Positions 1-38,294 of a DNA stretch of 39,431 bases are shown here, in pieces (the first letter of the stretch is position 1; each line of letters starts with the position of its first letter). The position numbers and the translations under genes were made by a program. Origin of the DNA: Piedraia hortae CBS 480.64. Taxonomy: Eukaryota. Under the pieces are notes generated by a model. That model worked only from the letters and a program-made list of their open reading frames with translations. It did no database searches and had not been told where the DNA came from. Location: contig MU005976.1 of assembly GCA_010093745.1 (NCBI GenBank), positions 248,001 through 287,431 on the forward strand, read 5' to 3'.

Positions 1-245
1 TCCTACATACATAACAAAACAGTGATGCAAATTTACAAGATGACGCTAAGCATTAGCGCAAACTTCATTTTTTATAGGACGCCACTGAGCTCCATTGCAA
101 TCTAAAGTTTAATTCCCAAGGAAACATTTTATGATGACGAATAAGTCCGCATTAGGACAACATACAATCTCAAGTGTGCAGAAATCCCTGAATGTAAGGT
201 GACAACGTCACGGGCACTGCACTCCCAGTAGAAGAGGCCTGACAG

Positions 246-1800
246 CTAAGGCACATCAATCTCGTCAAAATCAGCCACCAGCGTCATCCCAATCCCCCAA
301 TCATCCGGAACGCTTGATGTTTTATCATCCTCAGCCTCGGAGAGAACTTCCGTGGTGTGGTATTCCTCCTCGTCGAATCAAACCTCTGCAAGAGCCTCGG
401 CACCCTCCACAAGCTTCGAATTGCTGTAGATGCCCATCTACAGTAATTCAAAAAAAAGTTCGTGCCCAGCCCACGCGTGGCTGCGCGTAATCATCCCAAA
501 CTCCTTTGACAGCCATGCACACGACGCCCCACAAGCTACCTACCCTGGACAAGGAGGAAATCCGGCAAACTCATTGACATATTTAACAATCGAAGTAACC
601 AATGTCCTGGCGGTATATCTATCCACGAACGCCCTGGCGAATATATGAACCCAAAGCGTCCACAACCTTGACTCCAAGCCTGGACGCCACCTTAACGGAG
701 GTACCTTCGATAGTCACACGATCGTCTGTTATGTGTAACTCCTTGCGAGACTAAGTAGCGGTCAGTGATCCAACTCCTCAGATTCGAAAGATCGGAAACA
801 ACAGACTTCAGCTTCGTCGAAGTCACGACGTACATGTCCAGGTCCGTAGGGATTTCCAAAGAGTGGGTGATCACTCCCACATGTTCCGGATGATCGATTA
901 CGACCATCCTGTAAAACATCATCGCCCCGCAATTCTCGAGCAACTCTAAAGAGAACCAAGGCTTACGTCTACCAGCGATGCTGAAGGTATGCGAATTCAG
1001 CCGCGCCTTCCACGCGACAGTAGGATAACAATCTACCCCACTCGATCCCTTAGGGAAGTCGAACCCCACATAGTGAAAGTCCCTTGAGGCATGGATGCCG
1101 GTGCCGGACAACTCACCAGCCGAATTCAGCAACATCTCTGGATGATAAGGAAGAAACCCTTAACAGACTTGAGATTCAGCAGCAACCATAGTGGTAGCCA
1201 CCTGATAAGGTGAGTAGGCATTCAACCAACTGCCGATGCATATCGCATTATATCCGGGTGAACAACGCCACTCGGTGAACAATTGACATTCCATTCTCCT
1301 TGCACGTATCGATTGTAAACGGATTTGTGAAGCCCGGTACGGGTCACTTTGGAAACGTCGACGAAATCACGATAGAACCTGAATGCGTCCAAACTCTGAT
1401 GTCTCTCAAGTATAGCACCGAGTCAAGCGGGGTCTAGGATCAGATGGGCTTTGCCAAGGCCCGATTCCAAAGCTGGGATGATGGCTGGCGACAACACCAC
1501 CGCAAAAAAAGCCACTTTAAACGCCGACAGCATCAACCACTCGACTACCAACCTACGCATTTCAACGTAATACGCATATACTGGCTGGACACGAGACCAG
1601 CGTAAATTCTGGAAACATCTCGGTTAACAGGGATATGTCTTCACTAGCAAGGGAAACCGTAACTATCGAAACGGGTTTACTCACCTGAAACTACCCCTTG
1701 GCGGCTGACAACTGGTACACCCTTTTTCTATGCTGTCAGCCACGTTAGTGAACATTGGATGCGTGGTTGACCGTGAGACATTGTTCTCCAGAGCCCATAC
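246..1800 (-). pseudogene. Endogenous non-retroviral RNA-virus element: decayed alpha-like/virga-like (Martellivirales-type) viral methyltransferase-guanylyltransferase (Vmethyltransf) gene
   Basis: Manual minus-strand translation across frameshifts and stops gives these blocks in order: KPVSIVTVSLASEDISLLTEMFPEF (~1604-1678); YAYYVEMRRLVVEWLM (1531-1578); AICIGSWLNAYSPYQVATTMVAAESQVC*GFLPYHPEMLLNSAGELSGTGIHASRDFHYVGFDFPKGSSG; FSLELLENCGAMMFYRMVVID; DDRVTIEGTSV (~694-726); VHIFARAFVDRY. They are collinear with remembered tobamovirus replicase blocks (YPEF; HSLAGGLRSLELEYLM; AIALHS; FHFSENLLL; FSRDGDKLTFSF; WFCKFSRID; SRVIINGVT). No introns are needed. Includes the supplied ORF 692..1135. Confidence 0.8.
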
Positions 1801-1802
1801 GT

Positions 1803-1832
1803 ATAACTCGTGTACATCTGTACACGAGTTAT
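1803..1832. repeat. Perfect inverted repeat (14-bp arms, 2-nt spacer) at the virus-relic/hAT-relic junction
   Basis: ATAACTCGTGTACA-TC-TGTACACGAGTTAT read directly from the sequence. Confidence 0.95.
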
Positions 1833-2400
1833 CGGCAATTGCGAGGCTAAGAGAGTAAGAGATGCACCCGATGGTGTAAATATGGGCGTATTTCAGCCCC
1901 AGGATGCGGAGGCCAGACTCCTGGTTGGAGGATTGTCGCAGAAAACGGCGATGATGCGACTGGGTCCCACGACTTGGACAATCTTGCCAAGCTCACTCGC
2001 GATGAACCCACCAGAGTGCTTCTCAATTCCAGTGGGATCTGATCCCCAGAGAACTCTTGCCATGCGTAACGAGGAACCGATATTTGTCTTTTGGTACCAG
2101 CCATACTCATCCAAGCCCTGAAAGATGCACTGCATCTTGGCCATGAGGAAAATAAGGCGGAAGGAATTCACAGATGCGATCCTGGCCCCACCGTCCACCA
2201 CCAGCTCCTCCGCACAGACACCCAAGCACTGCCATGACAGCCACCGTTCATCGGTGTCCGGTCCGTTGTTCGCCCCGAAGCATCACAGCGCTCTTGGTTT
2301 CATTGTTTGACACACAGAGGACACATAGATGAGGATGCTATTGTTTCTGCCGCGCTGCCCAGACCTTATAGCAGAAGTCGCCGGACGCCTCCACTCCACC
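1833..2400 (-). mobile_element. Degenerate hAT-superfamily (DUF659-type) transposase fragment
   Basis: Minus strand gives BED-finger-like DFCYKVWAAR..HL...C (~2315-2385), then GLDEYG, TGIEKHSGGFIASELGKIVQVVGPSRIIAVFCDN (the HTGE..A..L......GP..I.AVVTDN motif), then a frameshifted KYAHIYTIGCIS-TLSLAIAD (CxxH region). Stops and frameshifts are present. Confidence 0.7.
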
Positions 2401-2469
2401 GGGAATACCACCCCAAGTAACATCGACCCCGATTGCGCTGTTGCACTTGCCATCGTCAACCGCCCGGCC

Positions 2470-2790
2470 TATAGTCGCTAATCGTTTATGCAACTGCATC
2501 ATGAGATCCAACGAGTGTTCGTGAGGTTTTTTCAACCCCGTAACAAAATTGGTGGGCGGTTCGTGTCCACTCTGAGGGATAGACCGTTCCACGTCCTTTT
2601 CGTGTAAGCCAGTATTTGGGCTACTGAAACAGAAGCCAAAAAGACACCCGCCCTGGGCAAGTGATAGAATATCATAGCCGACGGGGCATGGCTTGCCACG
2701 AACTTTCACCGTGTGCGTAGAGCACCCAGTAAACCTCACCATGCATTTGTCAATGGAAATCCCAGTGGCTAGAATGTTGGTGTTTTGGGA
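2470..2790 (-). mobile_element. piggyBac-like (DDE_Tnp_1_7) transposase fragment
   Basis: ISIDKCMVRFTGCSTHTVKVRGKPCPVGYDILSLAQGG matches the piggyBac IDE.MV.F.GR..H......KP...G motif. It is truncated and no TIR pair was found. Confidence 0.8.
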
Positions 2791-4234
2791 CCACGGAGTG
2801 TGCCGCTCTCAAAGAGATGAAATCTGACGATAGCCCGGAATAGAAAGCAAATCCTGAAACCACTAAAATCCGTCCGAGGTGGTGTGGCCCTTGGCACAGG
2901 ATCTGGACCTGGATCTTTCCCTAATAATTATGCCCGTATGATGTTGGGTGAGTCAAAGAGGTCTTATCCGTTGCAAGGCTAAGTGAGACCTAGAGCTTAG
3001 CATTCCGGGTGATCCGGCGTTCAGAATGGATGCCCCTTGAGATTGCAGTGGTATATGATGAGGTGGGGGTGATGGCTGTGGTATTGTGTGACTCTGCTGG
3101 AATATCTTGCTAGAAAGTTGAGGGGTGTTGTCACCTCCTGGCCGGTACCGGCCCGATCCACTTGGAACGTCACTGGGTATTCAGCTTGTAAGGAATCGCA
3201 ATCTCTCAATAACCGTATTTGATGTAGTTAAGGGGGACGAACTGATAGTGTGAGTACACTAAGACATGATTAATATAATAGTTATATGTGCTGCATACAT
3301 GAAAGGACGTTGTACATGGTCATCACGTGACACATCCTTCAACTGATGTCGATTATGCCCGGCTCATGTTATAGCCATGAGATATGAGGCGGTGGCTAGT
3401 GTCGATCCTTGCCGGTACCTTGACATGTCGATCCCATGGTCGACATTGGTGTCGCTGATAGATTATTTATTTCTTGTACATAGTTCCGCCCGCCGGTTCA
3501 GGCGGGAAGTCGCGTTATCCTTCTTTCATCACTGTTTCCTCTGTCCACACCAGTGATATTAGATTGGTGAGTACCAGCCCTTGGTCTATCTACATAATTC
3601 TGGGAGCGTAGTACGTTGCGGTTTCAAGCGACTTGACACCTTCCAGCCGAGTACTAATTACTAAGCGATAATACACGTAATCATCCGCGTATTACAGTCT
3701 AGCGTCTGAAATACTCTATGATCCCACGGCGCTTCGTATTCGGAGAACTCGTGGAGCACAAGAAATTGAAGCAATGAAGACGGCTAGCTGATTTGCCGGT
3801 GCTAGTGATTGGCTTGGCTTAAGCTGCAGGTCGTCACCAGACTTTTGAATCAACAGAAGAAAACACGGCTCAACGCAATGGTTCGGTTATTTTCCTTGCC
3901 GTTGCGGGGTTCGGTTCAGGTTGCTTGTGTGGGGAACCCCGTTGACTGTTGCCGTCCGCCACACCTAGCCACAGCTTTGATAACTATACGTCAGGTGCAC
4001 ATGCAAATGTTCATGTAACGACCGGGTTTCAAGACTAAGCCATGTCTGTAGACAAGGTCATAGATTGATATGGTATGCAAACACCTTATGTTCAGTGACG
4101 CCTTGATCATGATGAGTGAACGATCTGCAAAGTGTCAAAGGTAAGATTTCCCATGTGGCTGGAGCCACAGCCTTCTGGGCCTGGATCCTCCAAACTTATA
4201 ACGGAAGAGTCCCGGAGAACAGTCGAGGAAAACG

Positions 4235-5820
4235 ATGAGTCCTGTTGATCCATCTCCATCTACACTTTCAGCAAGCTCACGGTAAAGTTGATAAAGAAGA
4301 ACTCATCAGGAATTTTTGAATTAACTTGTGCAAAGACACAGATATCCGCCAGAATGTGATAGTCCGGTTAGTCTAATATGCGATCAGCCAAATGCCTGTC
4401 CATACACAACTTGGCCATTTCCAGATCATGAGAAAAGGGACCTAGCAGCACCTATTCCCTGTCCTATGCAGTCTGGAAGCGGGACCCAGGAGCCTATTAG
4501 AGAGGAAACATCTTTGAACATTCAATACCAGAGAAGAAGGATATGTGGGCGATCAAAATTGCGGTTCACATTGATATTACTTGTCTTGGCCTTCGCGATA
4601 ATAGCACTAACCGTTGGACTTGGGGTGGGCTTAGGACTGAAGAGGAAAAGGTATCATCTTTTCAGTGTTATCGCATAGCAACTACTGACTAACTAAGCTC
4701 GCCAGATTCTTTATCCAGTGACTCGACATCTAATTCAACTGGAGCAACGTCAGAGCTACATACGGGACCATTTGGGTGCATGGCAAAGGCAAATTCCACC
4801 GAGAGCGCAATACAAGACTCAGGAGTGGCGCTGATCACCCGCTCCCGCGTTGGCTTTTACCCAGATTATCCTGCGAGGCTATTCTACCAAGATCCCACTG
4901 GCCAGCTTCGCCAAAGGAAACTCGTAGGTGAGAGATCGTGGAGCGAGGAAAAGCTGCCGGTCGAAATTTTTGCCAAGAAGGGCACGACGCTGGCTGCAGC
5001 GGCAGACTATGTCGGAATTCATCTCTTCTGTGAGTCGAGTACAAGGCCCCAGCCAAGCTCTCGGCTAACACTGTAGCAAGACTTGGATCAAGACTCTCAC
5101 ATGAAGGAACTGGTTTTTAGCAATAAAAGTGTAGTTCACCATGGTCCTCTCGACGCTATGGACCCTCCCGTTGGGCTAGCAGCCAATCGAGCGACCAAAG
5201 CTTGCGGCTTTGGCTACTGGACCAGACAAAATGGCGAACCGGTAGTGCGGCCTGGTTACTTTCTCTACTTCGCATCCAACAAAACTACTTTGCAAGGATG
5301 GCTCAACATGAACGGCACCTGGCATTATCGCAGCTCAATCCCAAACGTCAACACGACCGCTGGACTATATTGTTTCATCCGACCCGACAATCCAGCAATG
5401 CAATTTCTATTTGCCAGCACCAGCGGCAATCTCGAGGTTTGGACTGACAACTATAACAACACATTGCCCAAAAAGGACTGTCAGGTCCCTGTTCCCACGT
5501 CTTTCATCAACCACGAAACGTATATCGGCGCCAGCGAGCAGTTCTTCTATTCCCAGGACGACAAGAATAGAATTCTGTATCGCAACGTCTCCCTTAAAAC
5601 AGTTAACAGGTGCAACGAAACAGTCTCCTTTGACGAAGATCCTTTACCCGTGAGTAATACACCGGCGCTGCCAGGAACAACGTTAAGCCAGGCCTTTTCG
5701 ACCGAGCTCGACGATAAAGAATGGCAGGTTGCCGCTTTTCAGACTCAACGGCAGGGCGTGACTGTTTACTCTTTCGAAAAGGGCGTTTTCACCGGTGGTG
5801 CGGATATTATCAGGTGTTGA
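4235..5820 (+). CDS. Type II single-pass membrane protein with a fungal fucose-lectin-like beta-propeller ectodomain (~477 aa, 4 exons)
   Basis: Exons 4235-4281, 4336-4650, 4698-5029 and 5081-5820 join in frame through GT..AG introns of 54, 47 and 51 nt. There is an RRRICG motif followed by a TM helix (LILLVLAFAIIALTVGLGVGLG), propeller-like blades RLFYQDPTGQLRQ and IHLFYLDQ, and several N-x-S/T sequons. Confidence 0.75.
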
Positions 5821-6717
5821 GCATGACTGACCTGCATGGGGTCATCTTCAACAGGAGAAAGGTTCAAATGAACCTTCACGATACAATCCTATTGCTATTA
5901 CCATTGTTCATACGCCGCTAAAGTTGTAAAGCTCTGCCTCCAAGGGCAAGCACTCCATCTATGCATATTGATAACCGAATTATATTCACTTCCTCTACGC
6001 CTTGCAGCCTGACTGTTCTCATACTAATTCGGGAGCTCACCACGCTCAGCTCGGTGACAAAGCGCTGTGGCCGTGACATCACAAAGGATCAGAGTCCAGC
6101 CATCGCCGCAGCCTCAGATGTTGATATTCAACTCCTCAGCATTCGTCTGGCCGCTTTTTGTCTCCGGGCCTGGCGTACATGCCACTCTGTCTCTCCCTCA
6201 TCATCGACTGTCTGGATCATCGAAGTCAGGACTCATCAGCTAAGAACGCATGCTTATTCATGTCTCCGTTTGAGCCAGAAGAGCTGGGGTTGAACTCGAT
6301 GAGAAACATGCGCAGCCTTCCATTGTCAAAATATACCTGGATTCTGGCCAATTTCTTTGACCCCATCACAAGCCAATAGGCTGACTGGGAGACAGCCACC
6401 ATGGACTCATTAAGGTGATGGGAAGCTGGCCGGTATCTGTCGGCGGACGCGGCTGGCCTTTCTTGTTGATTCTATCGCCCATATCTTTCGGCTGTCGGGG
6501 TTTTGTATACTCGTCCATTGCAGTCGCTGGATCGTTCTCATTTTTTATGGAGGCTTGTAGATCTTAGCGTGGTCCAGAATCGCCTGCATTCTATATACTA
6601 GCAATCATGTCTATGAGAACCAGGGTATGCCGGACCAGTCACGGTCTGTGGACGAAGACTTTTTCCCTCGTCCTCTCGCAAAATTAGGTATCCGTTGATT
6701 TATTCTTGTTTCGACCA

Positions 6718-11484: not shown

Positions 11485-14400
11485 CTAAATTGTACACGCA
11501 GCGGCAGGTGTCCCATTTGCTCGATCCACTCCATTCTCTTTCTCACTCAAATGACACTGACAGTCATACTTTTCCCTAAACTCAAACGGCGCCAGGCCCT
11601 CAATCTTTTGAAGAGCATCCTGCGCCACGCGGAGACGGGCATAGCGGCCAGACTTGCCTTTTGAATGAGCAACAATGGTTTCATGAACGAGTACAACAGC
11701 AACAACATCCTTCCTCTCAGAAGGGTCCACGGTTGGAAGCTCCTTTGCCATCAGACAATAGTCCTGACACGCATATGTTATCTGCAGGAGGTTGTGAAGA
11801 TGGGTGCAGGGATGACTGTTTGCAAAGGTGTCGTAGAGAGTCATGTCCTCAAAGTACCATTTCATGTGCTGGTCAAAGAACTGCTGCACGACATTGTAGT
11901 CAAAGTCGCTGTCGATGAACATTGCACCTGTGAATGATTCGACAAGATCGGGCAGACACTTTGGTGGGTCGGAAACGGTGGTCCAATAGTCCCGAGCGTC
12001 GCCTGCAACGGCTTTGGCTTCGAGAAGCTCTGTTGTGTACTCTTGGATCTGGTGCTGGAGGATGGGCGAGTTGTGGCGGATATGCTTGTGGAAGCCAATG
12101 TTGACGCACACGGCACCGAGGAACTTGTTAGAAACCATGGCCATTTTGTGCTCCGTCAGCCATTGCGGGTCCTTGTCTGGATAGCGGTGGAAGAGATAGG
12201 TTATGCTAGCCATGTCGAGGAGGGCATCCCCCAAGAACTCGAGACGTTCGTAGTTGGGCAGCTTCTCAAACATGAACGGCTGTGATGGATGAATAAAGGC
12301 CGAACGGAGCAGGTGCGGATATTTGAAATGGTAATTGTGTTCCGTTTCCACCTTTTCTGCCAGCGCCCTCTGCGAAGCCGTGACTTCTCCTAGTTGATAT
12401 TCTGGCTTCACGTATGCATTACTGTATTCTTTCCAGGTCAGCATCACGTGGTCATCGCTGCTCACCAGCTTCGTCACAGCCCGCACTGCATTGTCCCAAT
12501 AACTGGGATGCCACATTTCATTCAGTCGGTTGTGGCTGACGTATGCCGCGCCGATCAAGGCTTCGCTCACATCTGCAATCGTCTTGATTCCCAGCGAATG
12601 AGTTGCTTCGTAATCACCTTCCCCTTTTCCTTTTCCCTTGCCCTTGAGAAGATTCAGACCCTCCGGGTACCACAGACGCCGAGAGAAGGGAACGGTTCGG
12701 ATATACTCAAAGAGCTTGAGCTCGCAGGCTACTGCGTACAGGTTCTTGTTGCAAAGCATCACCATGCGGCGGACGTGGAATTCAAACTCATTGTCGCCAG
12801 GATTCTGAATAAAGGTTGATATTGTCGTGGCCGTTTTCAAGAAGGTGTCCCCTATGAACTCTAACCGCTCGTAGTTGTCGCCCATTCCCTTTTTATACTG
12901 CACCTTGCCCCCATGTTCCTCTTTTCTACTATCCGTGTCCTTTGTCAATGCTTCCAGAGCAAGTTTGTAGTCTGCTTTGACGCCAATAAGCTCACACGCT
13001 TCTTCGGCTATCAGATATTGCTCCAGTCGGTAGATGACGGCTGGCCAGAGAAACGCTGACGCCGCAACGGTTGGTGGTAGTACAGACACCCTCAGTGGCT
13101 GAGGACAAAGCCAGGCCCTCGTACCCTGGGCAGATTCTTTGTGCGTCGGCACCTCCAGCAAATTACGACGTTGAAGGCACTTTTCAGCCTCAAACACAGG
13201 CTGGGAGAGATCCCACTCGTCTTTTCTTTTCTCTCGAGTGCTCTTGAACATGTAATTGGAATATTCCAAAATGTTCTTCATCCACTTTGCCCTCACCGCA
13301 CCCTCTGGCACGGGGTCAAGCGGCTTCTTGTCGTAGCAGATTTGCTTGACATAATACTTGCGGCTGCCGTCCCAGGGATCGACAATGAACCGACCCAGCA
13401 ACTGCTCGGGAGGCAACTCCGCAGTCCAGTTGAAATCGGTGCGGGTGGAAGCTAGGCGAAGAAGGTCCCAGTCGAAAAGAGTCTCGGGGTCATCACAAGG
13501 CTTACCGGCCGCTACTTCTACAGCAATGTCATTCAGAGGAGCCAGCCAATAAGACAGTTGGGCCGCGTCCTCCTCGTATTCTTTGGAAAATACATCGAGG
13601 AGCACGCGAAAAGTAAACTTTGTAAACATCTCAAGCATCGCCGGCGACACTTGCAAAGCCTTGCCGACAGACCGCGTATGCACAGCGGTTGGAGTCCCAT
13701 TGCCGAGATAAATGTCAAATCTAGGAAATGTCTCCGCTAGCGGTGTTCTGGTCAGCATTGCCAGAGTCTGATGAGGACGTTCCAGCCCCTCTGGGAAATC
13801 AACAATCACGATATACAGCGCACTTGGCAGCGTTCCCCTCGTCTCGTTCCATATCTTTGGCTTAGTCCGCATGGCATAGCTGTCCATTTTGGTCGAGGTA
13901 ACAGCCAAGAGAGCGTTACGCATCGCCGGCAGTTGCTTTTCATACACTGGCAACAGGTATTCATCAAGGTAGCCGCGTTTTCTGATCTGGAAACAAGCCG
14001 CAAAGGCTGCCGCACGCTTCGCCAGCGCCTTTGTTGGTCGCACATCCCCAACGACGGACCGCAATGGAGCATTCTCGCCGGGAAGCAGAACTTCGGCAAC
14101 GAACTTGTTTCCTCGCTGGCTCACAATATACGTGGGTGCCATCATCTCATTCGAGTCTGTTGGGATAGCAGAAACGAGATTGGCCAGAATACCCAGCGCG
14201 TTGCCGTAGGTCAGCTTGGCTTTGGTCGACGGTTCTACATAGAATTTGGCATACTTCTTCTCAGAAGCGGCGAGTTCCTGCATAAGGTCTTCGTTGCCCT
14301 CCAGCTTCCTGTCTTCGGGCAAAAGCTGGCAAAACTGCCTCATGGTAGCCTCCTGATATCGCACTTCGGACAACAGACTCTCATGAAGATGGTTTCCCAT

Positions 14401-16131
14401 CTCTATCATGTGGATGAATTTTGAATTCCCTTTTCGTGCCCGCCCCCGTGACTGCACATACTGGATCATCGTCTTGTACATGTCAAACCGGACCACAATG
14501 TTGCAGTCGGGCACATCCAGTCCTTCTTCCGCAACGGTGGTGGCAAAGAGACAGTTGATCTCGCCTTTGCGGAACTTCATCATGGTAACGACCTGGGAAC
14601 GGAAAGTAAAATTGTCCTCATCAATACCATTGGCATTGGCGCCAATCAGAAACCCCGGGTGGAGGTGTGGCGTTCCAATCTGTTCAAAGGCGTAGGCCAA
14701 TAGTCTCGCCGTTTGCCTGGCCTCGACAAAGATGATGCAACGGTGAGACGACGGCCTTTCAAATTCGCCTTGCAAAAAATTCTGCAAGGCCTTGACCTTT
14801 GTGGTGATGTTTTCCTCATTTATTTCAATAGTTTCTGGTCGTTCGGCTGCTACAAAGGCGATAACTTGTCGCATTTCTTCTACACCCTTGTCAAGCAGCT
14901 TCACGCCTTCGCCGTTGGATGTGCCGTCGGAGATGCCGTGAAACTTCCGCTCCATGTCGGCTTCATACCGCTTCTGCCTTTCATCTGAGAGCGCATCGAC
15001 AAGATAGGCGTCCGCCATGCCGAAGCCGAGGTGGCGGCTGATCTCTATTGCTTGGCTGAATTGCTTATCAAAGGCCTTGACTTCAGGAAATTTGTTTCGC
15101 ACAGCTTTCAGCAAGGCAGTTGGGCTGCCCCGAGCCTGCAGGGCCGCATATCTGAGGATTCGCTCCTCTGGTCGTTTGATGGCTTCGGTAAAGCTGGCAT
15201 CGTTTGTTGTTGCAATCTTGCTGTGCAGGATGGCCTCAAGCTCAGAGGCAGCCTGTGTGACATCTGTCTTGGCGTCAATGGGGCTTGCAGTCATGCCAAA
15301 AATCCTTGGTCTGTTCTCAGGCTCCTCAACCATGTAGTAATCTTTGATTATCCTAGCAAAAACATGATTTTTCTTGGCATGGTGGGCTTCGTCAAAGACT
15401 AGCAAATTGATCTGGTTTATTCCGATAAAGCCATGAGAAAGACAAGAGTGCACGATGTCAGCCGTGAGAACCACTACCTTGTGATCTTTAAACAACGCCG
15501 TCCATTTCGAGCGGTGCCAGAGATCGATGCCGTCGCCACCGCACACTTTGGCGATTTCGTAATCTGCATTCTGTTCCAGTACTGCATACTGCTGGTAGAC
15601 AAGAGTCACGCTGTCCACAACAAACAAGCTGACTTTGGGCTGCTCTCCTCTAGATCTACGCTCTAGTTCCTGATCGACGGTCCACCTAAGCAGCAAAACA
15701 GCAATAAGTGTCTTCCCGGAGCCCGTGTCCAGCACCGCAATGGTGTTTTCTCGTTGGGCTCGTTCAAACAGCTCTATCTGATACTGACGGGGGTTTTTAA
15801 TGATCAAGGCGCTTTCATGCTTTGCCATGAGAGACGCAATCGACAGAACTTCGTCAGCGGGTTTCCCTTCATCCTTACACTTTGGCTTCGCCTTTAGAGC
15901 CTCAATACCCGCTTCACTGGTCAGCCAATTTTCAAAAATAGCCCGCTGTGCCCTTCGACGCTGGACCAAAGTGTTTGCCGGCTGCGGCATAAACTCATCA
16001 TCGCTCGGGTCATCGTCTGAGAAACTGTCGCTGGAAGTATCAACTCCATCCCGCTTCGACACGCCACTAACATGCGGCTCTTCCTCTTCCTCGCCGTCCC
16101 TAATTAAATCCTCTTCTAAACGTGGTGTCAT
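11485..16131 (-). CDS. dcl1: Dicer-like protein 1 (DExH helicase, DUF283, PAZ-like region, two RNase III domains, Zn-binding dsRBD), intronless, 1548 aa
   Basis: PRQYQ, DTGSGKT, DEAHH, GMTAS, EEGLDVP and QSRGRAR helicase motifs; ERLEFIGD and ERLEFLGD RNase III signatures; C-terminal HPCTHLH...CQC as in fungal DCL1. Confidence 0.96.
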   Translation of the reverse strand: MTPRLEEDLIRDGEEEEEPHVSGVSKRDGVDTSSDSFSDDDPSDDEFMPQPANTLVQRRRAQRAIFENWLTSEAGIEALKAKPKCKDEGKPADEVLSIASLMAKHESALIIKNPRQYQIELFERAQRENTIAVLDTGSGKTLIAVLLLRWTVDQELERRSRGEQPKVSLFVVDSVTLVYQQYAVLEQNADYEIAKVCGGDGIDLWHRSKWTALFKDHKVVVLTADIVHSCLSHGFIGINQINLLVFDEAHHAKKNHVFARIIKDYYMVEEPENRPRIFGMTASPIDAKTDVTQAASELEAILHSKIATTNDASFTEAIKRPEERILRYAALQARGSPTALLKAVRNKFPEVKAFDKQFSQAIEISRHLGFGMADAYLVDALSDERQKRYEADMERKFHGISDGTSNGEGVKLLDKGVEEMRQVIAFVAAERPETIEINEENITTKVKALQNFLQGEFERPSSHRCIIFVEARQTARLLAYAFEQIGTPHLHPGFLIGANANGIDEDNFTFRSQVVTMMKFRKGEINCLFATTVAEEGLDVPDCNIVVRFDMYKTMIQYVQSRGRARKGNSKFIHMIEMGNHLHESLLSEVRYQEATMRQFCQLLPEDRKLEGNEDLMQELAASEKKYAKFYVEPSTKAKLTYGNALGILANLVSAIPTDSNEMMAPTYIVSQRGNKFVAEVLLPGENAPLRSVVGDVRPTKALAKRAAAFAACFQIRKRGYLDEYLLPVYEKQLPAMRNALLAVTSTKMDSYAMRTKPKIWNETRGTLPSALYIVIVDFPEGLERPHQTLAMLTRTPLAETFPRFDIYLGNGTPTAVHTRSVGKALQVSPAMLEMFTKFTFRVLLDVFSKEYEEDAAQLSYWLAPLNDIAVEVAAGKPCDDPETLFDWDLLRLASTRTDFNWTAELPPEQLLGRFIVDPWDGSRKYYVKQICYDKKPLDPVPEGAVRAKWMKNILEYSNYMFKSTREKRKDEWDLSQPVFEAEKCLQRRNLLEVPTHKESAQGTRAWLCPQPLRVSVLPPTVAASAFLWPAVIYRLEQYLIAEEACELIGVKADYKLALEALTKDTDSRKEEHGGKVQYKKGMGDNYERLEFIGDTFLKTATTISTFIQNPGDNEFEFHVRRMVMLCNKNLYAVACELKLFEYIRTVPFSRRLWYPEGLNLLKGKGKGKGEGDYEATHSLGIKTIADVSEALIGAAYVSHNRLNEMWHPSYWDNAVRAVTKLVSSDDHVMLTWKEYSNAYVKPEYQLGEVTASQRALAEKVETEHNYHFKYPHLLRSAFIHPSQPFMFEKLPNYERLEFLGDALLDMASITYLFHRYPDKDPQWLTEHKMAMVSNKFLGAVCVNIGFHKHIRHNSPILQHQIQEYTTELLEAKAVAGDARDYWTTVSDPPKCLPDLVESFTGAMFIDSDFDYNVVQQFFDQHMKWYFEDMTLYDTFANSHPCTHLHNLLQITYACQDYCLMAKELPTVDPSERKDVVAVVLVHETIVAHSKGKSGRYARLRVAQDALQKIEGLAPFEFREKYDCQCHLSEKENGVDRANGTPAAACTI

Positions 16132-16253
16132 TACCGGAGATTTAAATCAAACTGTGGCTGAAGCCTAACGCGAGAGTGGGGCAGCACAATGACGTCATAT
16201 TCACCAACCTCCACTGTCACTTCGACCAAACCCCCAAGCAGTGACTCCCAATC

Positions 16254-18314: not shown

Positions 18315-20644
18315 TTAATGCCTATCCTTCTTCCCAAAAAAATGATGTCTTTTCTTATCCTTTTTCTCTGTCATCTTCGTAGGGGCGGTATGCATTCGCT
18401 GTGCTGGGGGTCGTTCTGCAGGGGCTGCTGCCGCGGCCCCTGTTGAGCCTCCTCCTACATGGACTGCGACAGCAGGCCCGCCAATGGGCCCAGTAGATCC
18501 TCCAACAGGAGCTGCGACAGCAGGCCCTACCCCTGGCCCTGTACTTCCCCCTGCATGCCCCCCCTCTTCCTCCAGCACCTCCCTCGGCACCCTCGGCACC
18601 GGCCTATCGACCGGCAAGTCCAGTCTCCTCCTCTCCACCGCCAGATCACTAATCTGTCTCACAAACAAGGCGGGGGATAGCATATGCGACGTCACGAGGA
18701 AAACCTCCCTCGCCGTAGCCTTTCCGGTGGTATAACACACCCTCGACTCTGAATACGTCGCACCCCCCGCGATGAATACAATAACCCTCTGGTGCGATTC
18801 CGAGGAATTTGAGGGGCGGGTCTTCGCCCACGTGGGTTTTGCGGAGCGGAGGGATGATGCCGCGGGTGTTGATGTTTTGTTTGCGGTGGGATCGTCAACG
18901 TCAAGGGGGGGGCGGGTATATGGGAATCTATCCGCGGGGAGGGCGTTTGAGGCGTGAAGTTCAAGGAGGGTTTGGAGGATTGGTTCGTAGCGGGATAGGG
19001 CGAAGCCTTCTTCTGGGTTATTAGGGGGTGATTTTCGGCCGAAGAGGGGTTGGCGCGGTGGGCGGGGGTCTTTAAGGCCGCGGGATGTGTGGGCGCCTAG
19101 GAGGGTGAGGCTTTTGATTATGGAGAGATTTTGGGGGGAGAGGGATGCGTGGGAGATGAGTTTGTTGAGGTCGGAGGGGAGGATTCCATCGCGGTAGAGG
19201 ACGTAGAGGATTAGCAGGCGGAGACGGTCGGATGGGAGAATGGATTCTTCGTCGAGGAGACGGACCAAGGTGTCTTCGACGCCTTTGGGTTTTTTGTAGT
19301 CTTCGTCGAGGCCGGTAGAGAGGATTTGTTCGAGGCTGCCGAGTTCGGCGAGTTTGTGTTTTTGGAAGAGGTTCATGCTTTCTTGGGCCATGCCGAGGTG
19401 GAGACTGTACGCTTCTTTTAGTTCTTGGAATTGGGGGAGGCCGGCCATCATGTCTTTGATGGCGTTGAGGCTGTTGGATCCGCCCTGAGAGTCTTTGGTG
19501 AAGTTGGGATTATCTTTGATGAAACGTTGGAAGTCGGACATGAGTTTGTCGATGGTGTCTTTCATGTGGCGGTGCCGGTTTTCGACCCAGATGCGGTCGC
19601 GTTCGGCGATGGGGAGGTCTTTGATTTCTTGGTTTGGAGCGCCTTCGTTGATGATGGTGCAGTAGGTGATGGTGTCTCCTTCTGCGATGGGGAGGAGGTC
19701 GTGTGCCATGGCTTGGTAGGTGAATTCGTGGAGAAAAGGAGCGAATAAATCCATTGTGCGATCCGTTATGTAGAGAACCCCCCGTGGACGGGAAACCTGC
19801 GGGGGAAAGTCGGTGTGATATTTGGCATAGAGGTCCAGCTCTGCCTGCACAACTTTTGCGAGGTGGTGGCATAGTGAACTCGCCTTGTAGTTGGCATTGG
19901 GCGGTTGATAGTAGCGAATCGTGGGATATTCGCCCAGTGAGACGCAGACTCCAACAATCTAGACCAGTTAATCGAAAGGAACGAGTTACTGAGACTACCC
20001 CACCTTTTGGGCAACATCCTCCATGTGCTGTCTGACCAGATTTTCGCAGACGGGATGGAAGAACATTGGGAAACTCCACGGGTCTCTGAAGGTGGCCAGA
20101 TGCGACTCTCGTGGAAAGAACTCTACATTGAGAACTCGGAAAAGGGATATTTGTCCACGGGCAATGGGCGACTGGTCGATTCGTTCTTTCAACGCTGGAT
20201 GCAGCAAAGACGTCCAGACCAAATGCGCACTGCGATATCGCCGCCGCTGGAAATCAATCATGAGACAGTCTACAATGAGTGGCTGAGGAGTGAGGAAGTA
20301 AATGGCATCGGTGTCGCCACTCTGTGGACGGCGTTCGGTGATGAGCTCAATATCTGCTTGTTAGTCTGCATACAACTGCTAGGGAGCTTACGCACTGGTG
20401 ATGTTCTCGTTAAGAATCGCATCTTGATCAAGCACATTGTCGATCAGCCGTTTGGAATCCGTGTCTAGCACCAAGACTTTCCACTTGAACAGTCAGTTTC
20501 TACAACCTGAGCCTTTCCATTACACACTTCGTCACCCCTGGTCAAGTTCTTCAACACGCCCAGCAGGACTGCCCCGGTCAGATATGTAGTATAGCAATTT
20601 TCAATATTCTTACTATCGCGCTGCGCTTCGATGAGAGAGACCAT
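18315..20644 (-). CDS. SEC1: Sec1/Munc18 SNARE-regulating protein (~717 aa, 5 exons)
   Basis: Exons 20614-20644, 20528-20568, 20396-20483, 20004-20353 and 18315-19958 join in frame through GT..AG introns of 45, 44, 42 and 45 nt. Motifs: WKVLVLD, CVSLGEYPTIRY, APFLHEFTYQAMAHDLL and FIAGGATYSE. Confidence 0.95.
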
Positions 20645-36558: not shown

Positions 36559-38294
36559 TAGGGTTGGCATCGATTGGACTTCACCTCTGTCGAGAGCTGC
36601 CTACAGTAGTTATGATCAGATGTTGACAGATCGCAATGGGTTCCAAATTCGGCGCTGAAAGCGTGAAGTGCAAGCTACATGGTGCTACGCCAGATTCCAT
36701 CAGCAAGTGCCGATAAACCTTGGAGAAAGGACCAGTATTTCTCTGATGAACCATGCTCACAATGGCTATGGTCATACATTTACAAGATGTGATGAACCCC
36801 AACTGGCGGTGCTGAAAGCATGAAGCGCAAATTACATGGCGCCACGCCAGGTTTCATCTACGTGCCGGAAGACTTGGGAGAGAGGAACAGATTTCTCTGG
36901 TTCTACCCCGGGCGCTGCTTCGTGGGCAAGCTGTCCGGAAACTAGTTCGGTATTTACTGAGGTAGAATCAAGTTCTCGACTGTCTACTCTTTGTGATACA
37001 TTCTTTCCTGTTTGATACTATTAACTCCGTTTGAAACCATCTACGTTTAGGCGAAACATCGTCTGTGAGGTAAAAACCCCGAGTTACGTGCTCATATCAA
37101 GATGCTCAAGCTCGCAGAGGCAATGGCCAACTCTCCCGGGGCCATCTCTCTGACCCTAGATGCCTGGACCAGCCCAATGCAGAACTCCAGGTTGGGCGTC
37201 ACAGCCCACTGGATTAAGGATGACTGGAAACTTGTGGACGTCGTTCTCGCCGTGAAAGACCTCAAGGGCCCACACAGTGGGGAGAACTTGGCGCGTGCCC
37301 TCGAATTCTGTCTCGATCAATTCAGCACCCGACTGGAAGTCCAGAGTATGATGACTAATAATGCGTCCAACAACGGCACCATGGCGGAGGAACTAGTGCC
37401 CAACCTGCCGATGTTTGACGAGCATCAGCACATCCCCTGCTCGGAACACATTTTCAACCCGGCTGTGCAGGCCGGATTCAAAGAGCTGGACGTCAAGGAG
37501 GCGCTGGGTGAAGATGAGGCCCTCCAGCTGGCCGATGACGTCCTGGCAGAGGTTCAAGGTGGATGGGTCTAGATGACGGCCGAAGCAAGGGCATATGAAG
37601 GAGGCCAAGTAAGATCACTTGAATCTGAACGACATTAGACTAAATCGTCTCTTGCAGTGTCTGCAACGCCAGGCGCACACCTGGCTTGTTGTTGTCCCGT
37701 CTGCGTCGCTTGGTCGCTCTTGTCAGAAAGTGCCCCCGGCAACGGGACGAGTACCGGCATCAGTGCTTGCGCCACGGCATGGACGGCAACATGGTACCCC
37801 TGGACGTCAAGACCTCGTAAAACAACACCTTGGACATGCGTGACGAGACCTTCCGGAAACGGGAGGTTCTCGAGTCCTTGGTGCGCCAGTGCGATTTGAA
37901 ATGGTACAGCCTCTTGCCCAGTCAGTGGGAGAAAGTCAGGGTCATCGTCTCCGCTCTCAAGCCCTTCAAGGACGCAACACGCTGGGTCTCTGGGTCAAAA
38001 TATGCCACTGCATCAGTGGCACTGAAAGTGTTCGCCGCTCTCCTGCAGATCATCGGCGGCTTAGCCACTACCAAGACAGACGAAAATCTCCGGTGGGCCT
38101 TCAGGGCGATGAAGCACAAATTGGACTAATATCAGGAGGTCCTCCGCTCGAAATTGTCCTTCTACGCCGCGATATTTCACGCGCACTTGATTCCACATTA
38201 GTATAGTACGCGGCCGACGTCATGCCATCGGAAGCCGTCGCGGAGGGTTTGTCATTCCTGCGTACAAGCCACTTGGCTGGTATCTCCAACCCTA
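36559..38294 (+). mobile_element. Degenerate Ac/Restless-like hAT DNA transposon; transposase relic at ~37050-38200, candidate TIRs TAGGGTTGG/CCAACCCTA
   Basis: ISLTLDAWTS, GVTAHWI, HSGENLA, TNNASNN, IPCSEHIFN, LDVKTS*NNT (from TRWNST), LKPFKDATRWVSG and AMKHKLD*Y. In-frame stops are present. The 9-bp inverted termini are at 36559 and 38294; no 8-bp TSD, so the ends are tentative. Confidence 0.85.
36651..36899 (+). repeat. Degenerate ~95-bp direct repeat (36651-36745 and 36808-36899)
   Basis: GCTGAAAGC.TGAAG.GCAA..TACATGG.GC.ACGCCAG...GTGCCG...ATTTCTCTG is present in both copies, offset ~157 bp. Confidence 0.9.

Follow-up and report, generated by a model that had tools for sequence, protein, structure and literature searches.

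A probable chromosomal fossil of a vivivirus-like mycovirus in Piedraia hortae, with palindromes at its two edges

Near one end of a 39,431-nucleotide stretch of DNA from the fungus Piedraia hortae CBS 480.64 (GenBank assembly GCA_010093745.1, contig MU005976.1, positions 248,001 to 287,431 of the forward strand), the minus strand carries a broken reading frame that resembles the capping-enzyme gene of positive-strand RNA viruses. This raises the questions of where the sequence came from, whether it is truly part of the chromosome, and how it got there. We call the whole stretch the window and number it from its first base. Regarding the first question, the region from ~460 to 1794 is very probably a non-retroviral endogenous viral element (EVE), i.e., the chromosomal fossil of a vivivirus-like lineage. 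Judging from sequence comparisons, the presumed source is a segmented positive-strand RNA mycovirus related to the fungal virga-like and tobamo-like viruses of the Martellivirales, with an S1 segment encoding a capping-enzyme region (Mtr1) and an RNA-dependent RNA polymerase (RdRp) without helicase. The fragment would correspond to the 5'-terminal ~40% of this segment, copied into DNA; it covers the predicted nsP1-like Mtr1 region and excludes the RdRp.

460..1794, minus strand: extent of the detectable homology to viruses; residues ~16-490 of an S1 protein of ~1,150 amino acids, in decayed form
692..1159, minus strand: longest intact frame of the fossil (155 amino acids), used as query for the homologue search

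The viral fragment and its relatives

A first-pass annotation, made from the sequence alone, had described a broken frame of about 500 codons at 246..1800 and quoted peptide blocks in the order of the alphavirus-supergroup methyltransferase region. All these blocks are present on the minus strand in that order, spread over several frames. MFPEF lies in the frame 1562-1690, MRRLVVEWLM in 1423-1623, AICIGS in 1160-1366, HPEMLL...SRDFHYVGFDF...SS and LELLENCGAMMFYR both within the 155-residue frame, and RVTIEGTSV in 619-750. The broken copy itself thus stands, at a shorter length: it spans ~440 codons of the Mtr1 region, from 1794 down to 460-493. The low end is uncertain and depends on the relative used (493 with the family consensus, 460 with P0001, the top match described below). 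For positions 246-460, viral origin could not be shown with ten close relatives, which gave no colinear match below ~470.

A profile built from 18 full-length relatives matches the minus strand at 1791-1270 (profile positions 17-194), 1267-734 (positions 196-374, E 2.3e-48), and 756-481 (positions 392-484). These three matches are colinear, and the order of the blocks is therefore not due to chance. The frameshift-aware comparison with viral proteins suggested by the first-pass annotation proved positive: identity to the family consensus is 40% (173 of 428 aligned codons), and 179 of 434 codons are shared with P0001. The strongest tblastn match to the fossil is that of P0024 (E 1.5e-72). The fossil starts ~6-16 codons into the viral open reading frame (ORF), and its other end is also inside this ORF. 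When ten close relatives were used to search for the RdRp or the linker in window positions 1-470, no match was better than E 0.03 and none was colinear. With the same relatives, the first 2 kb yielded no match to a polymerase, and the first 13 homologues revealed no polymerase remnant in the whole window.

These homologues were obtained by comparing the 155-residue frame with 1.84 billion representative proteins using phmmer, which retrieved 13 proteins at E≤1e-3, seven of them at E≤1e-10. The only homologues found are viral replicases with Vmethyltransf and RdRP_2, in line with the virga-like, Martellivirales-type origin initially put forward. RdRP_2 was found in 12 of the 13 (E 1e-71 to 1e-88), all of them 1,092-1,172 residues long. 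Vmethyltransf was found in four at E≤0.01, two above 27 bits (33.4 and 43.4) and two just below (26.8 and 24.6), and no helicase family was found in any of the 13. The matched region is always at residues ~180-380, within the N-terminal methyltransferase-like part, and the contigs bearing the relatives measure 3.3-3.9 kb. Named relatives are either tobamo-like (Botryosphaeria dothidea tobamo-like virus, Macrophomina phaseolina tobamo-like virus 2), virga-like (Erysiphe necator associated virga-like viruses 4, 6, 7, 8, 9, and 13, Grapevine-associated virga-like virus 3), from Aspergillus (Aspergillus flavus vivivirus 1, Aspergillus fumigatus RNA virus 1), or bear other names (Plasmopara viticola lesion associated vivivirus 4, Luckshill virus, Uromyces virgavirus E).

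Viviviruses are described as segmented positive-strand mycoviruses of the Martellivirales (PMC12282112). VP1, which comprises Mtr1 and RdRP, is encoded by S1, the largest segment (3,654 nt in FaVvV1), and the helicase by a second segment; the 5' terminus is conserved and contains (CAAAA)n, and the 3' end bears a poly(A). Neither of these terminal features is present at the edges of the fossil, be it (CAAAA)n on the 5' side or sense-strand poly(A) on the 3' side.

The position of the fossil among these viruses was assessed with a tree of the first ~560 residues (quick IQ-TREE search, 63 rows). It includes 58 family proteins of at least 1,000 residues, P0001, three viral contigs, and the fossil, and leaves out the shorter P0015, P0028, P0031, P0039, P0040, and P0056 as well as the more distant P0066-P0074. 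The fossil falls in a clade of eight rows (SH-aLRT 96) with P0017, P0020, P0023, P0024, P0026, L001, and L002, which adjoins the Erysiphe necator associated virga-like viruses 8 and 9. Its terminal branch is ~4 times the median (1.58 vs 0.36), as would be expected from unconstrained decay, and this length makes its exact sister unsure. The fossil being nested within viral diversity argues for a transfer from virus to host.

The transfer might have gone in the reverse direction, in which case the locus would be a pseudogene of a cellular family from which viruses took Mtr1. In favour of this reading, the top phmmer match, P0001 (E 1.1e-24, 44% identity), has only 571 residues and no Pfam family, and Mtr1 is termed an atypical methyltransferase domain (PMC12282112). 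However, a viral RdRp is part of the same protein in 12 of the 13 homologues, encoded on contigs of ~3.5 kb, the relatives of P0001 are themselves viral contigs, and the fossil lies deep inside the viral tree, not outside it. A second search for longer relatives of the 155-residue frame scored none, which is weak evidence in the same sense. We find a cellular origin highly improbable.

The family from which the fossil derives is predicted, from profile alignments and fold modelling, to be of the Vmethyltransf type with an nsP1-like fold. While a first hhalign run showed polymerase only, the alignment of 30 Mtr1 regions with the N-termini of two canonical Mtr-Hel-RdRp replicases gave a probability of 98.8% (E 5.6e-17, 393 columns) and placed the conserved His of the family opposite the canonical methyltransferase His. 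We also used an AlphaFold model (pLDDT 81.2) of the Mtr1 region of the nearest intact relative, L002, and not of the fossil. Its top 20 Foldseek matches are chikungunya virus nsP1 (E 1.9e-15 to 1.2e-12, TM 0.40-0.50), and cellular cap N7-methyltransferases come next at ~1e-4. Sequence searches of the PDB with the 155-residue frame gave nothing above chance level; with the family profile, they matched nsP4 for the polymerase part (E 1.5e-42). The assignment of the 155-residue frame to poly(ADP-ribose) polymerases (PARP) or ADP-ribosyltransferases (Atlas 0.91, recognition below threshold) was rejected, as the HMMER homologues, the tree, and the fold indicate a capping enzyme.

In the alphavirus-supergroup capping enzymes that have been studied, the His of motif I is the cap-accepting residue. 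The corresponding His of the family (position 100 in P0002) occurs in all of 18 sequences compared and in no fewer than 90% of 30; the viral clade considered here retains it, with a predicted catalytic role. The first-pass annotation had expected this residue at 1576-1578, where the sequence reads TAT. The codon and its alignment with the His are as it said.

Some results sit less comfortably with the capping-enzyme identity. The 12 separate frames searched match no viral family in Pfam. In a 211-residue piece obtained by reading through one stop, PF01660 is the sole Pfam family, and it remains under the threshold (11.4 bits, E 0.17, cut-off 27). In the PF01660 check suggested at the outset, the fossil itself stays below the cut-off; the source family is linked to the canonical methyltransferases by the hhalign alignment. 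Alphavirus nsP1 was not found by the PDB sequence profile of the family. Finally, vivivirus Mtr1 is described as generally devoid of the H, DXG, and DXXR motifs (PMC12282112), so that the label of catalytic His rests on alignment, not on an assay.

Decay, chromosomal continuity, and RNA

If the fragment is viral, does it still encode an enzyme? The alignments identified the following disruptions.

1691..1693, minus strand: in-frame stop TAG (frameshift-aware alignment)
1423..1425, minus strand: in-frame stop TGA (frameshift-aware alignment)
1160..1162, minus strand: in-frame stop TAA (frameshift-aware alignment)
1576..1578, minus strand: TAT (Tyr) at the conserved His of the family, His100 of P0002 (profile and frameshift-aware alignment)
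1232..1234, minus strand: GGC (Gly, within AICIGS) at an Asp that is invariant in the family, Asp216 of P0002 (alignment to relatives)

Besides the three stops, the frameshift-aware alignment has six frame changes, near 1724, 1591, 1265, 748, 651, and 556, and ~25 codons are gone near 750-770. The sequence is no longer coding, as the first-pass annotation had concluded from its stops and frameshifts: these disruptions, the deletion, and the Tyr and Gly at two conserved positions make the fossil unable to produce the enzyme. A Tyr at the position of the conserved His fits a dead copy.

Two public runs of one organism cover this stretch, X1 and X2, the latter from a separate study. In X1, a single contig of 7,991 nt spans window positions 1-3262, including both junctions, with 0 differences. 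Its depth, 13.2 vs 13 in the flanks, is that of single-copy DNA, and it runs ~4.7 kb further, to the left of window base 1. X2 has one contig stretch made of 281-750 and 807-1611, joined together, and another over 1685-3241, again with 0 differences; none of its joints occurs in X1.

281..3241, minus strand: span covered by X2 contigs, a spliced RNA joining flank to fossil
751..806, minus strand: 56-nt GT..AG intron within the fossil (X2 joint, shorter side 255), frame not restored
1609..1684, minus strand: 76-nt GT..AG intron within the fossil, removing the MFPEF block (X2 joint), frame not restored
3242..3298, minus strand: third X2 joint, outside the fossil (GT..AG; like the other two, CT..AC when read along the plus strand)

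The fossil is chromosomal and, going by X2, which behaves as an RNA run, transcribed within a minus-strand RNA that is spliced at host-type introns. The integration in a fungal chromosome that had been proposed is therefore borne out by both runs, since the X1 DNA contig bridges the two junctions and the X2 contigs are spliced across the fragment. The splicing, and the contigs running from the flank into the fragment, do not sit well with either a chimera or a virus existing as free RNA. The window also carries host nuclear genes (Dicer, mitochondrial RNA polymerase, MatE, Sec1, Suv3, TAP42, chorismate mutase, and an SPX-ankyrin-GDPD protein of the Gde1 type), and its introns are short (47-76 nt).

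An assembly chimera or a contamination, in which reads of an exogenous RNA virus would have been joined to fungal DNA, is hardly conceivable and already largely refuted. An open frame would be maintained in a virus that replicates, but the fossil has nine disruptions; the depth in X1 equals that of the flanks on a single contig bridging both junctions; and X2 contigs join the fragment to its flank and carry nuclear-type introns. What favours a chimera is that X1 may be the source sample of the assembly, and hence not independent from it. This also tempers our own conclusion, together with the nature of X2, whose label as RNA is a guess and which we take to be RNA because of joints that are missing in X1, and with the joint at 1609-1684, the shorter side of which has only 27 letters.

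Given that X2 contigs are spliced at GT..AG sites inside the fragment with 0 differences, one may ask if this is a domesticated, functional host gene of viral origin, whose apparent frameshifts would be introns. We consider this very unlikely. The frame stays broken once the observed introns are taken out: ORFs of the spliced form do not exceed 134 residues, and the largest one derived from the virus has 116. Within the exons there remain three in-frame stops and another four frameshifts, other residues stand in place of the conserved His and Asp, and the terminal branch is 4 times the median. Since the RNA lacks a long ORF, there is no evidence of function, and today's transcript would most likely be a functionless by-product of read-through from upstream. 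Its protein identity to any known relative, ~44% at most, makes it too distant for sequence-specific silencing of those viruses.

The start of the spliced RNA that crosses the fossil seems to lie in or close to a probable repeat at 3225-3560. Contig depth in this interval reaches 1182 in X1 (13 in the flanks) and ~720 in X2, and the interval has many loose contig ends and a joint on the opposite strand. These features probably reflect a dispersed repeat present in many copies; terminal inverted repeats were sought there and none found.

Edges of the fragment and routes of entry

How could an RNA virus have left this DNA copy? The features relevant to this question lie at the edges of the fragment and in its upstream flank.

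1803..1832, no strand: hairpin palindrome free of mismatches, its 14-nt arms separated by a 2-nt centre, ATAACTCGTGTACATCTGTACACGAGTTAT (hairpin scan)
415..452, no strand: second hairpin with a 16-bp stem and one mismatch; perfect core at 424-443 with 9-nt arms and a 2-nt centre, CTGTAGATGCCCATCTACAG
2338..2808, minus strand: possible piggyBac-like transposase remnant, an unproven lead (Atlas 0.95, DDE_Tnp_1_7 set in 29 of 30 matches)

The palindrome at 1803-1832 abuts the first homologous codons (~1794-1800), at the N-terminal (5') edge of the viral homology, and is the sole inverted repeat of this strength in the window with arms less than 40 bases apart. The core at 424-443 sits 10-40 bases past the last detectable homology, at the 3' edge. 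Folded as single strands, the two hairpins reach -12.8 kcal/mol (z -6.05) for 1803-1832 and -9.4 kcal/mol (z -5.91) for 415-452, and both are also found in X2 contigs. Exactly two hairpins of the 39,431 bases have arms of at least 9 nt and a loop of at most 6 nt, and both flank the fossil; shuffled windows (n=50) have on average 0.9.

These palindromes suggest a tentative scenario. Part of an S1 RNA would have been reverse-transcribed into complementary DNA (cDNA) by some reverse transcriptase, and the double-stranded product joined into a chromosome break beside the piggyBac-like transposon remnant, with the two bracketing palindromes as scars of hairpin ends. Either the cDNA ends folded back to prime second-strand synthesis, with a later nick ~14 bases from the loop, which would make the inner arms viral, or hairpins capped the chromosome ends and were opened away from their centre, which would make the outer arms those of the host. 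We propose the entry through hairpins as a possibility that falls short of being probable. The full sequence of events, i.e., an entry without retrotransposon (as hairpin-ended cDNA or as filler of a hairpin-processed break next to a piggyBac-like element) leaving junction palindromes of ~30 bp with a 2-nt centre, followed by uptake into a spliced RNA with new introns, is doubtful when taken as a whole.

The same fossil may instead have arrived by the ordinary route, in which the reverse transcriptase of a long terminal repeat (LTR) retrotransposon or of a long interspersed nuclear element (LINE) switches template and the copy is co-inserted with the retroelement. The palindromes would then be unrelated local features; tight hairpins are not rare at arms of at least 8 nt (10 in the window). 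This route is the usual assumption for non-retroviral RNA virus insertions, and the first-pass annotation had adopted it for the source of the cDNA. Yet none of the 42 ORFs of at least 65 residues between 1684 and 9601 matches families of reverse transcriptase, integrase, or gag, the 3' edge has no poly(A) run on the sense strand, and the two longest tight hairpins of the 39 kb are found at the two edges of the fragment. As no retroelement was found next to the fossil, the host-retroelement step stays an assumption. Still, the window ends 460 bases past the fossil and the X1 contig runs ~4.7 kb further to the left, so that the ordinary route is a serious rival, which we rate as possible without holding it to be probable.

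The hairpin scenario has its own weak points. The two junction hairpins are the longest of 10 tight ones when arms of at least 8 nt are considered, the 14-nt palindrome stands out more than the 9-nt one, which alone would be unremarkable, and the bracketing was spotted post hoc. Moreover, neither poly(A), nor target-site duplication, nor retroelement was found at the edges of the fossil or in its flank, which also counts against our reading of the locus as a whole. The literature, searched with incomplete coverage, yielded no relevant report of palindromes at EVE junctions.

The piggyBac-like candidate lies ~500 bases upstream of the fossil, in the same orientation. Pfam and PDB sequence searches with the frame at 2338-2808 do not confirm a piggyBac element. 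The neighbouring minus-strand frame at 1893-2282 is perhaps, going by a motif, the continuation of this candidate. Its reading as hAT-like was rejected, as BLASTP against the frame at 37069-37572 showed nothing. The latter, on the plus strand and 167 residues long, we take to resemble the central part of a hAT transposase, again going by a motif; it matches no Pfam family at E≤0.01.

The composition of the fossil (435-1816) differs from that of its flanks. The ratio (CpA+TpG)/(ApC+GpT) is 1.03 vs 1.33-1.45 in the flanks, TpA/ApT is 0.80, and the observed/expected ratio of CpG is 1.01 vs 0.76. The indices of repeat-induced point mutation (RIP) are borderline, and the difference could stem either from retained viral composition or from mild mutation of the RIP type.

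Elsewhere in the window, a plus-strand gene at 4335-6000 has two short GT..AG introns (4648-4694 and 5030-5080) backed by X2 contigs; its frames, including the one at 5077-5817 (247 residues), match no Pfam family. A full Dicer-type gene on the minus strand at 11485-16146 encodes DEAD/Helicase_C, Dicer_dimer, two RNase III, and dsRNA-binding domains, and its location ~10 kb from the fossil is most likely a coincidence. The gene of the Sec1 family has, in its C-terminal low-complexity region (18450-18545), two tandem 48-nt copies that are 73% identical.

Significance and comparison with known systems

To our knowledge, viviviruses and their kin are recently described and known only from RNA. 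A chromosomal fossil implies that a vivivirus-like virus once infected an ancestor of this fungus, and orthologous copies in related species, if present, would give a minimum age for the lineage. The spliced RNA illustrates how viral sequence gains introns and joins a host transcript. Junction palindromes without a nearby retroelement are a testable clue to how such insertions form. Were the entry through hairpins true, they would provide junction-level evidence for a separate route of RNA-virus sequences into fungal genomes.

The closest known system is the S1 segment of viviviruses such as Aspergillus flavus vivivirus 1 and of related fungal virga-like and tobamo-like viruses, to which the fossil is homologous over residues ~16-490, colinear, and nested in the tree. 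Segments of this type associate a methyltransferase-like N-terminus with RdRP_2, without helicase, on an RNA of ~3.5 kb, whereas the fossil has only the Mtr1 part in the window. It also differs from them in being chromosomal DNA with six frameshifts and three stops, and its best-kept block is at most ~44% identical to any relative found. The likeness to chikungunya virus nsP1 concerns the fold modelled for the nearest intact relative, not the fossil. Unlike the enzymes of the alphavirus supergroup, the fossil scores below the PF01660 threshold and has a Tyr at the position of the His, and nsP1 was missed by sequence searches.

As for insertions of this kind in fungi, one article mentions in passing an "endogenous" tobamo-like virus in Eutypa lata (PMC12090730). 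By its description, this case differs from the fossil in involving a monopartite Mtr-Hel-RdRp replicase. We found no report of a vivivirus-derived insertion in the literature searched, the coverage of which was incomplete, and fungal fossils of positive-strand RNA viruses appear scarcely reported. Known non-retroviral EVEs of RNA viruses include toti-like and partiti-like ones in fungi and plants and virga-like ones in insects. Like them, the fossil is a decayed and transcribed piece of an RNA virus gene that resides in the DNA of its host. It differs from them in its presumed origin from a segmented vivivirus-like mycovirus and in having palindromes, rather than a retroelement or poly(A), at its junctions. 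Hence, while non-retroviral viral fossils are already known, what this locus adds is the vivivirus-like source and the unusual structure of the junctions.

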